DNA of 32,000 nucleotides, from the NCBI GenBank assembly GCA_008080745.1, contig SHMX01000001.1, positions 180,001 through 212,000 of the forward strand, given 5' to 3'. The position numbers were made by a program, and so were the translations under genes. The first letter of the stretch is position 1, and every line of letters begins with the position of its first letter. The notes beneath the pieces are model-generated. The model saw nothing but the letters and a program-made list of their open reading frames with translations. It was not told where the DNA came from and did not search any database. Shown here in pieces: positions 19,206-26,892 of this stretch. This stretch comes from Candidatus Thorarchaeota archaeon. Lineage in GTDB: Archaea; Asgardarchaeota; Thorarchaeia; Thorarchaeales; Thorarchaeaceae.

Positions 19206-19267
19206 AAGTAAATCGACAATTTACAAGGCTTTAAGTCACACTCTATGACATAGTGAGTTGGATAATA

Positions 19268-20014
19268 ATGACTCTGACTCTAAAACAAAAAGAGCGGTAC
19301 TCGCGATTCCTTCGATTAAACGAGATACAAAAGGAGGATATGGAATCAATTGTACGCACGACTGTTGGTGTTGTTGGGGCAGGAGGTCTGGGAAGTTCTT
19401 CCCTAAGACTACTCACTGCTATAGGTTTTGGAAGAATCATAATTGTTGATTCAGACGAAGTTGAATTATCTAATATTCAGAGACAGACACTCTATAATAC
19501 AGAGGATGTGGGAAGACCCAAGGTAGAAGCCGCAGTAGAGAACCTGATGAAGCTAAACCCAGAAGTGAAATTTGAACCGAAGAAAGTGAGGGTTAATGAG
19601 GATAATGTTGAGGATATACTTCGGGATACAGACATTATTATTGATGGACTCGATTCCTTCAAAACACGGAAAATAGTCAATAAATTCAGCTTGGAAAGCA
19701 AGAAACCCTACATTTTTGCGGGTGCTGTAGAATTTTATGCAAATACTACGACCTTTCAGCCCGATAGTACGGGTTGTTTCCATTGTATTATGGGGGATGC
19801 TAAAGATAATCCAGAAATGACATGTGCGTCTATTGGTATAACCCCGGAAATACTACCAATGGTCACCAGCGTTCAGGTTCGAGAAGCGGTACTAATTGCA
19901 ACAGATAGAAAACCCAACCTTGCCAATAGATTACTGTCTATTGATATTGGCACTCTTGTTTTTGAAATGTTTGATATAAAAAAGAATGAGGAATGCGAAG
20001 TCTGTGGAGTTTAA
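19268..20014 (+). CDS. HesA/MoeB/ThiF family E1-like adenylyltransferase
   Basis: ERYSR, VVGAGGLGS, DSDEVELSNIQRQ, DGLD, Zn ligands CFHC and CEVC, putative active Cys in TCASIG. Start ATG 19268. Confidence 0.93.
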   Translation: MTLTLKQKERYSRFLRLNEIQKEDMESIVRTTVGVVGAGGLGSSSLRLLTAIGFGRIIIVDSDEVELSNIQRQTLYNTEDVGRPKVEAAVENLMKLNPEVKFEPKKVRVNEDNVEDILRDTDIIIDGLDSFKTRKIVNKFSLESKKPYIFAGAVEFYANTTTFQPDSTGCFHCIMGDAKDNPEMTCASIGITPEILPMVTSVQVREAVLIATDRKPNLANRLLSIDIGTLVFEMFDIKKNEECEVCGV

Positions 20015-21156
20015 GCTCCAAAGAACAGTCTTCGCGCTCTTCTCTTCCTCTCCTCATCACTCTGATCATCTGGTGGTGGTGGAGGTGGAGGTGGTGTGGT
20101 CTTGTCCGCTTCGTCTTTGGACTCGACTTCTTCATCTTCTTCCTCGTCCTCACTGCCTTCTTCGGATTCATCCTCAGAATCGTCAGGAATAGATGGTTCA
20201 TCATAGGGACTCCATACTCGCTTAGGATCAGTAGGAACTTCATCTTCAGAATCGGATGTTTTGGATTCGACTGATTCCTCTGAATCTGGAGCTATAGTTT
20301 CTTCATAGTCACTCCAAGTAAATTCAGGTCCCTCGGAAGGTTTTGAGGGGGATTCTGGTGAAGCGCTCTGTTCGAAGTCATCAGTTGGAGGTATACTTCG
20401 CTCTGGCATAGAAGTCCTTTCAAAACTGGATTCTGGAGTAATTTCCGTATCGGTTTCGGTTTCTTCGGATTTTTCAGGTATCGGTGGTAGTTCTGATTCA
20501 GAACGAAGAGATTCTACACCTAATGGACTGGGTTCAATCAGTTCAAAGTCATCTTCAAAATGTCGTGATGAGGAACTGAAGGAGTAATCATCTGATTCTT
20601 GCTTGTCGGATTTACCTAGAGATTCGACAGATAATGGTTCAATATCCTCACTCTCAGATTCGATAGGAACTTCTGATTCAATAGGTTCAGTTGACTCAGT
20701 AGGAATTTCAAATTCGTCGGTTTCAGGAGATTCAGCTCTTTCAACTTTTTCACGAGTTATAGACTCAGAATAACTAGTGGTATCAGATGAAGTTTCGTAA
20801 GAACCTCTCTCTGGTTCGTAAGCAGAACTTTCCGGGATTTCCGATCCACTTTCTGTGTGTTGATAATCCTCGGTTACTTCATCTCTTGCTGTTTCGGTCT
20901 TTTTGAATTCGACTCCCAATTTCCAGCTAAGACACTCTTCACATTTCTTTGCAGCCGCTATTAGTCCGTCCGCTATGAAATCTTCAAGCGATTTGGCTTG
21001 TTCAGGATTGCGTCGCGACCATCTCAGAAAGCTATCTACCATACGTAAAGCGTCACGAACGCCTAACCAATACTTCTCGTCCTTCTCCGAGCTCAATGGT
21101 GACACCTGAAGATGGAGATATGTAATTATGACAAAAGCCTTTGCATTACATACCAA
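20011..21156 (-). CDS. Acidic intrinsically disordered protein with N-terminal helical/CxxC domain and C-terminal poly-Pro plus basic helix
   Basis: Long E/S/D/P-rich open frame with P8 and a final RKRRARRLFFGA. The true start is probably TTG 21096 or GTG 21105. Confidence 0.85.
   Translation of the reverse strand: MVCNAKAFVIITYLHLQVSPLSSEKDEKYWLGVRDALRMVDSFLRWSRRNPEQAKSLEDFIADGLIAAAKKCEECLSWKLGVEFKKTETARDEVTEDYQHTESGSEIPESSAYEPERGSYETSSDTTSYSESITREKVERAESPETDEFEIPTESTEPIESEVPIESESEDIEPLSVESLGKSDKQESDDYSFSSSSRHFEDDFELIEPSPLGVESLRSESELPPIPEKSEETETDTEITPESSFERTSMPERSIPPTDDFEQSASPESPSKPSEGPEFTWSDYEETIAPDSEESVESKTSDSEDEVPTDPKRVWSPYDEPSIPDDSEDESEEGSEDEEEDEEVESKDEADKTTPPPPPPPPDDQSDEERKRRARRLFFGA
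20071..20094 (-). repeat. Eight consecutive Pro codons (CCA/CCT)
   Basis: tggtggtggtggaggtggaggtgg on the plus strand, read in frame with the stop at 20011. Confidence 0.9.
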
Positions 21157-21164
21157 AATACATG

Positions 21165-21617
21165 CTACAACCCGCGTGTCGTAAGCAATTCTTCCACGAG
21201 ACCTTCAAAAGCTGAGATAATCCTCTTCCGCTCATCATCATCAAGGGGTTCATCAAGAATGAGCAACCTGCATGGAACACTTCCAATTTTTTCCTTGACT
21301 TTGTTTTTGTATTTCGCCTCAAGATCCGGGTCGGTCTTCTCTAATACAACCATAGCCCCATGAGCGCCAGTATAAGTCATAGTCAAGAGGATATCCAGAG
21401 CTGAATGTTTGGAAAACATAAAGACAGCTCTAACGTCTGCTCCGTGACTCTCCCGCTCAATAGATCCTATACTTATTCCATCAACAGATACTAGATCTTT
21501 ATTGAAGATCCTCACAACTTCCTCTAATAGATCTTCATCGGGGCCAAGTAGGGTAATCTTAAACAGAAACCTTTGCCCTTTCCTTTCCGAGGCTGGTGAC
21601 ATCAATAATTTCTCCAT
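21165..21617 (-). CDS. Degenerate Rab/Ras-like small GTPase-fold protein (pseudo-GTPase)
   Basis: FLFKITLLG and TYTGAHGAMVVLEKTD echo Rab1 YLFKLLLIG and YYRGAHGIIVVYDVTD, but GxxxxGKS/T, DxxG and NKxD are absent. Confidence 0.7.
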   Translation of the reverse strand: MEKLLMSPASERKGQRFLFKITLLGPDEDLLEEVVRIFNKDLVSVDGISIGSIERESHGADVRAVFMFSKHSALDILLTMTYTGAHGAMVVLEKTDPDLEAKYKNKVKEKIGSVPCRLLILDEPLDDDERKRIISAFEGLVEELLTTRGL

Positions 21618-22953: not shown

Positions 22954-25900
22954 TTATTTCGTTGGACGAATTATTTGGGGACCAACTATATCATGGAAGA
23001 GCTCTAGATAGGAAGAATCACTAGATAGCAAACTAAAGGGCTCATCAGAGTCTGTACCTAAGAGTATAATTTTATTGTCAGCAACCGCCATTAATGGAAC
23101 ATCTTGGGAATAGATAATCCTCCAACCCGGCAGTTCTTCAATACTGGGTTCACCATCTTCGGGTAAGGGAATGATCAATATCTTTCTTCGAGGTTTGGAA
23201 ATCTTGGAAATCTTCTTTAGGTCTAAATCACCAGGATTTGGACTTGCAATCACTATTGATTCTTCAGCTTGATTAGCCAGAGCTAGTATCTGTGAATAAA
23301 TTGCCTCTTTTCCTTTGATATACCAAGTCTTACCAGATTGTGATAGAATTTCTCGACTGGCTTTTTGGATAACCTCAAGACTCTCAATCGATTTCTCTGT
23401 TACTGATTTCACACTCTCGAATGATGAATCTAAATTCTTCTGAAAATCAGTGTATTGTTTCTCCAGCTTGGTCACCCACCTTCTGATTGATTTATCCATC
23501 TCGGTGCTCATAGCTGTCAATACTTCGGACCTAGTTTGTTTCAGTTCTGAAGTTGTTTCTGTCATGACTGTGTTAGTCGTGGCTGTCGTTTCATTAATCT
23601 CAATATTCTTTGTAGCCACGTCAGCACGGATAGATTCCATTAATTCATAGGATTTTGTACTCACATCAGTTTTTAATTCAACACCAAGGGACTCAAATTT
23701 CCTCGAAGCTTGCTGATTGGCAACAAGAACATTTTGACGAGTTTTATCAAGTATGTCATCACAATTGGATCGCAGTTTCTTAGCAGTTCTCTCAAGGAGA
23801 GTAGTTATTTCATCATGGGCTGATTCCAACGAGAGGGAATAATCATGAAGTGAAGTATTCAGTTCCGAGTTAGCTTCGGAATGAACCGCAGCTACTCCCT
23901 TCTTTATCGATTTTGTAGCTTCTTCAACACCAACTTTTGCACTCTCTGGCATAGCATCAATGGACTCCTTAACTCGCTCTAGAGCTGTTGCAACCATTGA
24001 TTCAAAGTCCGTAGCTTGTGAACGAAGCTTCGATTCAGTTTTATCAAATAGACCAATACTCATAGCTTCTAGTTTTTCAATAGTTTCATCACCCTTCGAT
24101 AGTATATTCTCGGTTGCCTGTTCAGAAGTTTTGGAAAGTTGTTGTTGGACCAAGGTAAGCTCATTATCCAATTTACTTCCGAGAGCGGTAAGCGATGACT
24201 CTACATTAGAAACTGCAGATTCAACCCAGACAGAGGCAGCGTCGAAGGCTAAAGCAACTTCGTTCTTTCTGGTTTCTAAAGTCTTCATGATATCCTCCTT
24301 AGACTTGCTTCTTGCTTTCACAGCTTTTGATTCCGCTTCCGTGATTGAACTTTGATAGTTTTCAAGACGTTCAGAGGATACCCTCGCTCTTGCACTGTAT
24401 AGTGCATCCAGTTTCTTACTAGTTTCAGCTAGTGTTCTCTGTTTGGCATCACTTTGAGATGAAAGGAATGACTCTGCCTTTGTTTTGATAGCACCAGTTG
24501 ATTTGGTAATGAAAGTCTTGGCATCATCACGTGCACCCCCAATCCTTTCAACCACAGTATCCCTACCACTACTGATTGAAGCATTGAACTCTCGAGATAC
24601 CTGAGTAAGATTTTCTCCAAGCTGCCGAATTGTGCCACTGCTCATCTCTCTTAATGACTCAGCAGTTGTGATCATTGATTGTTCAAGATTATCTATAGCG
24701 GTGTTAACCATTGAGGTAATTGAAGTACGCTTCTCAGAGCTCACCGTCTGAAGTGTTTCTCGAATCTCCTCCGCATGTTCAGCTACTTCATCAACTCGAC
24801 TCTGTAATTGTATTGTGTACTCCTCTTGTATTTTGAGTGAATCGGATTCTAGGGAGGAAATCTCTGTTCTAATAGCATTCTTAAATTCGGTATGAGCTGA
24901 ACCAATAAGATCAGTTGCTTCCAAGGTCTGACTAGAAATTAAGGCATTGAAAGACGACTCTGTGCTCTGGGTTAGAGTGATGAATTGACGAGTTATCTCT
25001 TCAAGTTTGACATGGAATTCCTCCTGGATCCCTTTCGCCATTCGCTCTATTCGTCCCGTCTGATCTTCAATGGTGGAATCAATTTCTTTTTGAATCCGAG
25101 TAGCATGGCTAGTTAAGGTTGACACACTCTGAGCGAGTCTTTCATTCAGAGTTGTCCCAAGTTCTTGGTAGAGTGTCTTCGTGACATCTACCTGTGTCTT
25201 TGTAGTAGTTGCAAAATCGTTTATGATATCTGTAAATGTACTCTCAAGAGAGGACTCAAACTCTGTAGACATAAGTTTTGCATCAGAAAGAATTGCTTCA
25301 CTTTGACTTGCTGATTTAGATATAATGCTGTCAAATGCAGTCTTTAGTCGACTATTCATATTAGTAACAAGAGAATTAAATTCTGACGATTCTGTATCAA
25401 GAACTTGAGAGATTTCATCTACAGCACCAGTTAGTTTCTTCTCAATTTCTTCTCCGGCAATTGAAGCCCAATCATCAATATCAGCATTGAGTGTTTCACC
25501 ATCTTCCTGTATTCTAGCATCATCAGCTTCAAGTTGGCCTTGTAGTAGGGAGAGTATGGAATTCCGCACCTCGCTGACATGAACATCGAAATCTGAATTA
25601 ATCGATTTTGCAAAAGATTTCAAGCGGGCAAATTCATCACTCAGAAATCCACTCGCCTTGTCAAAATAGGTATTCACCGAGGTTCGAATAACTTCATGAT
25701 AAGAATCGTCAGTGTCAGACACCTGTTCAAGTTGAGCGGTGACAGACTGATTTGCAACCTCCATAAATCCTGTCACTTCTTTCTTCCAAGCTGAAATGTC
25801 ACTTAGGACTGAAATAGTAGCGTCAATTGCAGTCTGAATTTCATGCTGAACGTGTTCTGCTTGTTCACGAGGAATCTCTTTAGCACTTTCAAGCATGCCA

Positions 25901-26820
25901 TCAAGAGACTCCTTCGCACCGAGGTAGGATTCACCTAGAGTACTATCAAACTCACTAAGACTGGTTTTCAAATCTGAGATGAGTTGGTTTAGCTGTTTTA
26001 CGCTTTTCTTTGAGATATCTGTCGATTTTGCAAGTACTACCTTTACAATTTCTTTTGATGCATCATCAAGAGCTCCCTCTGATTCTGATAGTGCTTCGTT
26101 TATTGATGACCTAATTTGCTCTACTAATTCAGCTATCTTGTTGCTTACACCATCTATCGAATCTGAAACGGAGGTGGTCTCATCATTAAGCCAATCATCG
26201 AATTCGGTGGCAATCTCATCGGTGGATTCGATTAATTGTTTTTGGCTGGCATCTAATGACTTCTGCAATTCTGACAATAAAACTCCTAGGCGATTGTCCA
26301 ATCCAGTATCGATTTCTGTAAGTACAGTTTCTAGCTGTTCAACCAAAGAATTGAGAACATTAGTTACAGTTCCAGATATCTCTTCAATCTGGTCACGAAC
26401 AGTAGTAACCATCTCGTTTTCATATTCGTCTAAAGCATTGGTTACTTTGAGATCTCGTTCTTTATGAGACTCGAGTAAATTCTGGGCAAGTGAGCTTGTT
26501 GTTTTTTCTTGCTCACCAATGACATTTTCAGAAACCTCTTTGATTGAGGAAAATTCGTCAAGCATCTCTTGGAGAGATGATACCACCATCGTATCAAGGG
26601 GTACAGCCCGATAAACCGGAATTACACCCTCTAGCTCTACCACATAACCTTTCTCAATCAATTTCTTCAGTGTTGATTTTACTTTTGAGGTCTTTTCACC
26701 AATTAATAGAGCTACTCCCTCAGCAGTAATATTACCACTCGCAAGTATGGGATAAAGCACAGAAGCTTCAAGTTTGGTGAGACCAAGATTGGATTTCAAT
26801 ACAGGAACAGTTTCAGTCAT
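22954..26820 (-). CDS. Giant TrmB-family protein: N-terminal wHTH, ~1100-aa helical insert, C-terminal TrmB effector-like domain
   Basis: LGLTKLEASVL...TAEGVA...LIEKGYV...YRAVP matches the TrmB HTH; WYIKGKEAIYSQI...AEESIVIASP matches the start of the TrmB C-domain. Start ATG 26820 (or GTG 26847). Confidence 0.85.
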   Translation of the reverse strand: MTETVPVLKSNLGLTKLEASVLYPILASGNITAEGVALLIGEKTSKVKSTLKKLIEKGYVVELEGVIPVYRAVPLDTMVVSSLQEMLDEFSSIKEVSENVIGEQEKTTSSLAQNLLESHKERDLKVTNALDEYENEMVTTVRDQIEEISGTVTNVLNSLVEQLETVLTEIDTGLDNRLGVLLSELQKSLDASQKQLIESTDEIATEFDDWLNDETTSVSDSIDGVSNKIAELVEQIRSSINEALSESEGALDDASKEIVKVVLAKSTDISKKSVKQLNQLISDLKTSLSEFDSTLGESYLGAKESLDGMLESAKEIPREQAEHVQHEIQTAIDATISVLSDISAWKKEVTGFMEVANQSVTAQLEQVSDTDDSYHEVIRTSVNTYFDKASGFLSDEFARLKSFAKSINSDFDVHVSEVRNSILSLLQGQLEADDARIQEDGETLNADIDDWASIAGEEIEKKLTGAVDEISQVLDTESSEFNSLVTNMNSRLKTAFDSIISKSASQSEAILSDAKLMSTEFESSLESTFTDIINDFATTTKTQVDVTKTLYQELGTTLNERLAQSVSTLTSHATRIQKEIDSTIEDQTGRIERMAKGIQEEFHVKLEEITRQFITLTQSTESSFNALISSQTLEATDLIGSAHTEFKNAIRTEISSLESDSLKIQEEYTIQLQSRVDEVAEHAEEIRETLQTVSSEKRTSITSMVNTAIDNLEQSMITTAESLREMSSGTIRQLGENLTQVSREFNASISSGRDTVVERIGGARDDAKTFITKSTGAIKTKAESFLSSQSDAKQRTLAETSKKLDALYSARARVSSERLENYQSSITEAESKAVKARSKSKEDIMKTLETRKNEVALAFDAASVWVESAVSNVESSLTALGSKLDNELTLVQQQLSKTSEQATENILSKGDETIEKLEAMSIGLFDKTESKLRSQATDFESMVATALERVKESIDAMPESAKVGVEEATKSIKKGVAAVHSEANSELNTSLHDYSLSLESAHDEITTLLERTAKKLRSNCDDILDKTRQNVLVANQQASRKFESLGVELKTDVSTKSYELMESIRADVATKNIEINETTATTNTVMTETTSELKQTRSEVLTAMSTEMDKSIRRWVTKLEKQYTDFQKNLDSSFESVKSVTEKSIESLEVIQKASREILSQSGKTWYIKGKEAIYSQILALANQAEESIVIASPNPGDLDLKKISKISKPRRKILIIPLPEDGEPSIEELPGWRIIYSQDVPLMAVADNKIILLGTDSDEPFSLLSSDSSYLELFHDIVGPQIIRPTK

Positions 26821-26892
26821 CAAATTGCCACTCACTACTAATACCACCGGATAATTCTTGTAAATGCGTAAACGAGATACTGTTTTAATCAG

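Follow-up and report, generated by a model that had tools for sequence, protein, structure and literature searches.

A core gene of Thorarchaeia encodes a candidate dimeric scaffold protein with a conserved polyproline and basic-aromatic terminus

A gene on the minus strand of a Candidatus Thorarchaeota contig belongs to the core of Thorarchaeia, essentially as a single copy, the N-terminal head domain of its product being found in 76 of 87 genomes of the class (in a single copy in all but one) and in 23 of the 24 that are of high quality. The gene lies within the window, by which we mean the whole 32,000-nucleotide stretch of DNA that was analysed, and which belongs to an assembly that is 98% complete. 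We consider it fairly likely that the encoded protein is a soluble dimeric scaffold of a “hub - flexible linker - docking motif” design, and we refer to the tether gene and the tether protein after this proposed role. The gene is real, and the Asgard head family to which it belongs is undescribed in the literature that we found, as are the Asgard pseudo-GTPases, one of which is its upstream neighbour. New to the present analysis are a corrected start, a promoter-like element, a genome in which the two neighbouring genes are split, a fixed spacing in the terminal region of the protein, and a wider family with swapped tails.

The open reading frame at 20011-21156 (minus strand) is intact, and runs from the head motif through a middle rich in E, D, S and P to eight prolines and a terminal RRLFFGA. 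This bears out the layout given in the initial annotation, namely an ordered N-domain, an acidic E/S/D/P-rich stretch, Pro8 and a basic C-terminal end. The start at 21156 given there is replaced, since comparison of 50 related loci shows a start codon matching the TTG at 21096 in all 50 (36 GTG, 10 ATG and 4 TTG), with the frame still open 20 codons further up in only eight. We therefore place the true start at this TTG, giving a coding sequence of 361 aa (20011..21096, minus strand), and the first 60 nt of the longer frame contain a conserved non-coding element. Ahead of the start are a GGTG ribosome-binding or leader element at -10 to -7 (21103..21106, minus strand; at least 90% conservation per position in 50 loci) and a BRE/TATA-like element, AA-N-[CG]-CTTT[TA][TC]TC (21130..21142, minus strand), with its first T at about -39/-40. 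The latter stands 39-41 nt ahead of the tether gene's start in 49 of 50 loci, and the standard deviation of its position is 0.54 nt relative to that start and 21 nt relative to the upstream stop. From archaeal promoter geometry, it is probably a promoter belonging to the tether gene itself, which would give a leader of about 11 nt; a genome-wide control for the element yielded too few matches to confirm a typical promoter. On the other flank is a convergent ThiF/MoeB gene (19253-20014), the stop of which overlaps the tether gene's stop by 4 nt. Its product measures about 250 aa in the window, against 347 aa in G001, the deepest genome of the Thorarchaeia, and in 13 of 41 loci the tether gene lacks this neighbour.

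The head (residues 1-66; 20899..21096, minus strand) is predicted from alignments and AF2 to consist of two long helices and a short third (helices 7-29, 37-51 and 53-60, pLDDT 80), and carries the invariant motif Y-W-x-G-V-R-D-A-L-R-M. Searches of Pfam, PDB sequences and Atlas features returned nothing for head or tail: the full protein has no Pfam family at E values up to 0.1, none of 34 head domains queried against Pfam had a significant match, and no PDB sequence matched the head. The matches returned by fold searches were all generic helical ones (best Z 5.0 for the single head and 8.4 for a tandem head); they are not proof of a new fold, nor do they single out a known helical-hairpin dimer fold such as the APS phenylalanine zipper or the Rab-effector hairpins. 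A CxxC in the head (C52 and C55; 20932..20943, minus strand) is invariant in Thorarchaeaceae, present in 10 of 11 Hermodarchaeia long forms and absent in other lineages; it possibly forms an inter-subunit zinc site or disulfide. The head is tandemly doubled in Hodarchaeales, and the doubled form was modelled as one bundle with a pTM of 0.71, against 0.59 for the single copy; the helical-bundle matches of the tandem head cover both repeats. Since the doubled head models as one unit, we infer that the single head dimerises, and a dimerisation unit is what it probably is, judged from the paralogous tandem model rather than from the Thorarchaeia protein.

The head is followed by an acidic linker (residues 67-334; 20095..20898, minus strand), predicted to be disordered from its composition and from a mean pLDDT of 0.40 in an Atlas model. 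It is 43% P+E+D, has a net charge per residue of -0.27, and ranges from 148 to 424 aa in length across orthologues; no transmembrane stretch is found in the protein. Three motifs on the minus strand interrupt it in a fixed order, with key residues conserved at 81-97%: R-[DE]-F-x-x-[DE]-F-x-L-x-E-P-x-P-L (20521..20565; F 96%, F 97%, E 91%, P 95%), F-T-W-x-x-Y-E (20302..20322; W 81%, Y 84%) and W-S-P-x-D-E-P (20194..20214; W 88%, E 90%). Conservation is thus confined to islands (the head, the three motifs and the tail), while the length of the linker drifts. Invariant islands in an acidic chain of free length typically mark short binding motifs within a disordered scaffold. The three internal aromatic motifs, absent from the initial annotation, strengthen its reading of the protein as an adaptor.

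The linker leads into a tract of eight prolines (Pro8, residues 335-342; 20071..20094, minus strand), encoded by mixed CCA and CCT codons, which no other proline run in 2,746 filtered ORFs of the genome equals in length; the next longest are two of Pro6. The protein closes with a basic-aromatic candidate docking helix (residues 347-361; 20014..20058, minus strand), aligned as E-E-R-x-x-R-A-R-R-L-F-F-G. All 49 distinct complete orthologues, chosen by the head alone, have a proline run of at least four near the end (at least seven in 37 of them), and all 49 have [RK]RLFFG plus one to three residues as their C-terminus. Conservation of the tract and of the terminal motif therefore holds within the family Thorarchaeaceae (f1); as a pan-Asgard trait the tract does not survive, Pro7-8 being restricted to f1. 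The distance from the proline run to LFF is fixed at 15 residues in 93 of 97 orthologues, and thus the prolines and the helix behave as one unit. The helix has a hydrophobic moment of about 0.55-0.6, a negative mean hydrophobicity and one hydrophobic turn only. Across 77 aligned sequences, conservative replacements are nearly absent at its Ala, Leu and Phe positions, which would favour a protein pocket over a lipid surface as the binding site.

Iterated profiles extend the head family from Thorarchaeia to Hermodarchaeia, Asgardarchaeia and Hodarchaeales. The G001 genome encodes a 144-aa form without the proline run, ending in RRRRLFFSA. The family is present in 18 of 19 genomes of f14 (probably Hermodarchaeia), where a long P/E-rich form ends in KRRTFFF in 11 of 11 complete copies and has an internal PPPVPPVPEP in nine of the 11, so that a basic-FF end is common to Thorarchaeia and Hermodarchaeia. 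Asgardarchaeia have short acidic forms, some with IPIF or NPFV-like tips. Among Hodarchaeales-type genomes, it is carried by 19 of 22 in f11 and two of two in f12, and a different invariant end helix was found in 18 of 18 f11 copies examined. In each long-form lineage the far end bears a hydrophobic motif peculiar to that lineage and, as read from the sequences, what stays constant in the family is a head joined to a disordered arm that terminates in a hydrophobic motif. Between lineages the tails are so dissimilar that the partners may differ as well. The basic-FF end would be the older feature and the proline tract an addition in Thorarchaeaceae, on a head tree too short and weakly supported to order the events of tail evolution firmly. 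The head family was not found in the largest family searched (0 of 135 genomes) or in many others, a result that reflects limited profile sensitivity and is not to be read as absence. Weak matches in f22 (E values of 1e-3 to 0.05) were treated as noise, and had disappeared in a later profile search.

Some of these relatives have features of their own. In f14, a stand-alone gene encodes only a 70-aa head (L128-L132, e.g. L129:4302-4511, minus strand), near a 630-aa gene of the rod family; its product could be a heterodimer partner or an inhibitor of the long form. The Hodarchaeales homologue (L157-L175, e.g. L158:3861-4703, plus strand) has repeated SPLE[ED] motifs that resemble the third helix of the head, and an end helix with a MIM1-like LxxxLxxLR pattern. 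The genes that follow it directly are a weakly gelsolin-like one (E 0.003) and one for a 760-aa TrmB rod.

In the design that we propose, the hairpin of the head would pair with that of a second copy into a four-helix hub, for which the stand-alone Hermodarchaeia head and the tandem Hodarchaeales head are counted. Two strongly negative, length-tolerant arms, acidic by composition and predicted to be disordered, would extend from the hub, each with the three aromatic motifs in fixed order followed by a two-part docking end. This end, conserved as a polyproline rod and then, at a fixed distance, a basic helix ending in LFFG, would bind one conserved protein partner with the avidity of two arms, and the linker motifs would recruit further partners. 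Our best single guess for the partner, a tentative one, is the profilin-actin system, in which profilin would sit on the proline rod while the basic helix contacts actin or some other acidic surface. The genome encodes actin, two profilins and gelsolin-like genes, and for one Thor profilin weak binding of VASP polyproline was seen as NMR shifts, though only at millimolar peptide (PMC8410842). The weakly gelsolin-like gene that follows the Hodarchaeales homologue, and an actin gene convergent with another homologue, are also counted in favour. Counted against the actin part are the lack of a WH2 L[KR][KR][TV] motif in all 116 tails inspected and the end of the chain directly after LFFGx. G001 lacks a proline run despite encoding a profilin, and profilin binding can therefore not be the ancestral role of the family. 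The further idea that profilin has in this protein a native polyproline ligand of Asgard origin, a dimeric tether that evolved independently on an Asgard-specific head and loads profilin-actin through Pro7-8 and the basic helix in the manner of VASP or the formin FH1, we regard as unlikely on present evidence; for Asgard archaea such machineries are reported to be still undiscovered (PMC9433394). The two profilin genes are in tandem outside the window (G000 C2:52594-51759, the individual genes being at 52594-52217 and 52136-51759), and were missed by a Pfam profilin search and found by tblastn. Also outside the window is a cluster of gelsolin-domain, roadblock-like and 102-aa weakly gelsolin-like genes (G000 C3:157736-162560), the last of which has a homologue that follows a head-family gene in Hodarchaeales. 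A short-form homologue, P0217, is positioned tail-to-tail with an actin gene (L153:1407-3274).

Ena/VASP, WASP/WAVE and formins share with the tether protein a helical module, predicted to oligomerise in the latter, a disordered linker, and polyproline followed by a short basic helix, and profilin and actin are present in the host of the tether gene. The polyproline of WASP/WAVE/VASP-type regulators has its counterpart in Pro8. The tether protein differs in lacking EVH1/WH1, CRIB, FH2 and the WH2 LKKT motif, and in having a single proline run that is absent in the wider family. Pfam finds no EVH1/WH1 or other domain of these families, the sole folded part being the all-helical 65-aa hairpin, and for the formin FH2 there is neither a Pfam match nor a folded region of that size. 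The alphaproteobacterial PopZ likewise combines a helical self-assembly domain, a disordered region and, at one terminus, a short helix that binds clients (PMC12999525); relative to it, the tether protein has the reverse order, with the assembly domain N-terminal and the docking helix C-terminal, a linker of 43-58% P+E+D to set beside the PopZ disordered region, and a self-assembly that is presumed from models. Homology to PopZ is not seen in sequence, neither the protein nor the 34 heads having a significant Pfam match. The MIM1/MIM2 tails of ESCRT-III (PMC7240154) resemble it in placing a proline-rich stretch and a terminal helix after a disordered linker, and differ in following a Snf7 core and in the leucine-rich MIM1 pattern, neither of which is found at the tether locus. 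On these grounds the tether protein falls outside the WASP, VASP, formin and MIM proteins. The description “eukaryote-like” in the initial annotation names one analogy only; because the layout also recalls a bacterial protein in reverse, it stands as analogy and not as ancestry.

The literature that we found identifies neither a native partner of Thor profilin nor a nucleation machinery fed by it. As the longest proline run of its genome, conserved family-wide, the tract therefore offers one concrete peptide to test on Thor profilin. Beyond this, the undescribed Asgard family, which extends as far as Hodarchaeales, keeps its head constant and varies the short motifs of its disordered arm from lineage to lineage, and so makes the evolution of motif-based adaptors before eukaryotes amenable to study. 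The interest would be moderate if the tail turned out to be no more than a membrane anchor, or the partner an ordinary one.

Other readings of the protein were weighed against that of a dimeric scaffold. Most of its sequence is of low complexity, as would be expected of an artefact or an unconstrained ORF, and this reading is refuted for practical purposes by class-wide single-copy conservation, the invariant motifs, the mixed proline codons and the conserved context of the start. The terminal basic-Phe-Phe segment, which may resemble the tail of E. coli MinD in sequence, might instead be a membrane-targeting helix through which the dimer would tether linker-bound partners to the cell membrane. 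The forms of Thor f1, Thor f2 and Hermodarchaeia all terminate in basic residues together with two or three Phe, and we keep this reading at a low probability because MinD makes a weak terminal helix effective by dimerisation (PMC8155659) and Asgard terminal amphipathic helices bind liposomes (PMC12583498). The MinD targeting sequence and the OdinFtsZ1 helix (PMC8155659, PMC12583498) are, like the tether tail, short terminal basic-aromatic helices with possible dimer avidity; the tether tail differs in having one hydrophobic turn, in being near-invariant, in being preceded by prolines and acidic residues, and in lacking an NTPase domain. Its negative mean hydrophobicity, the acidic run directly ahead of the helix and the acidic residues flanking the Hodarchaeales and Asgardarchaeia ends argue against a membrane anchor, and the near-zero tolerance of L/F/W or Ala swaps would be unusual for one. 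That the tail is a MIT-interacting motif recruiting the ESCRT cofactor Vps4, as suggested initially, fits poorly and is very unlikely. Vps4 and two ESCRT-III genes are present in the genome, MIM2 is proline-rich (PMC7240154), and the Hodarchaeales end helix has the pattern given above, but the ESCRT genes are about 90 and 230 kb distant on the contig, and Asgard MIM1-like motifs are leucine-rich, whereas only one Leu occurs in the Thor tail, the other positions being Arg or Ala. At the level of short motifs, there may be further, imperfect likenesses to cyclin RxL, p97 VBM/VIM, LIR, AP2 FxDxF and SSB tips. Cooperation with TrmB-head helical rods in chromosome organisation or tethering, with the acidic linker as a spacer or DNA mimic, appears improbable. 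A rod gene is found within about one to four genes of a family member in Thorarchaeia, in Hodarchaeales f11 and beside the short Hermodarchaeia paralogue, and only about two TrmB-head rods were found per genome. This association was, however, picked post hoc among many neighbours and involves differing rod paralogues and orientations, it does not extend to the long form of Hermodarchaeia, to the form of Asgardarchaeia or to several members in Hodarchaeales, and it could be inherited gene order. The rod genes near head-family genes are at 22954-26847 in the window, and in L129-L133 and L157-L172.

The last reading concerns the gene upstream, a Rab-derived pseudo-GTPase of about 145 aa from its second Met (21165..21602, minus strand) that is a constant neighbour in Thorarchaeia. 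Its profile matches Rab23 in the PDB (E 7e-6), and the GxxxxGK[ST] P-loop is absent from its alignment. The initial annotation proposed that the two genes form a module, in which, in a more specific form, the nucleotide-free GTPase fold would bind the head of the tether protein, or one of its linker or tail motifs. Its expectation of synteny is confirmed for Thorarchaeaceae, the pseudo-GTPase being directly upstream on the same strand, 48-151 nt away, in 48 of 49 loci whose flank is long enough to tell, while ThiF, FeS-assembly and Zn-ribbon genes that lie nearer by are present in some loci and missing from others. The pair is still adjacent in G001, and the pseudo-GTPase retains a conserved surface in the region equivalent to the switches. 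The adjacency stands; what it implies is weakened by unrelated neighbours that are equally syntenic (DUF362-like 41/41, aminotransferase 40/41, RimI 39/39), and by the tether gene's own promoter-like element, locked to its start. In G038 (L061) the two genes are on different contigs, and 1.37 kb upstream of the tether gene contains no pseudo-GTPase and retains the promoter-like element; in G001 the pair is divergent (head-to-head). Lineages with one gene of the two also exist: the pseudo-GTPase was not found by profile in head-bearing Hermodarchaeia, Asgardarchaeia and Hodarchaeales, and its relatives in three other families have no head homologue nearby. A dedicated module, which would then be specific to Thorarchaeia, is on balance unlikely. 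Co-loss of both genes in 11 genomes was considered and rejected, orthologous flanking genes being missing too in the five that were checked, and a candidate head homologue beside the G214 pseudo-GTPase relative was likewise rejected (probability 4%, E 0.24).

Several details of these loci deserve mention. The upstream region of L061 (1166-1320) carries what appears to be a resolvase-type helix-turn-helix remnant of an insertion element. Many pseudo-GTPase orthologues (L056, L071, L075 and L081) have lysine-rich N- or C-terminal extensions, absent in the window's copy, that possibly contact a membrane or an acidic partner. In f30 (L139:6478-7624, L140 and L141), two tandem pseudo-GTPase paralogues with no head gene nearby are flanked by a dehydrogenase-like gene on one side and a ribosomal L15e-like gene on the other. 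Longer relatives with a conserved C-terminal extension occur in f17 and f19 (L142:5847-6659, L143:6112-6681, L144 and L145), that of L144 adjoining roadblock-like genes.
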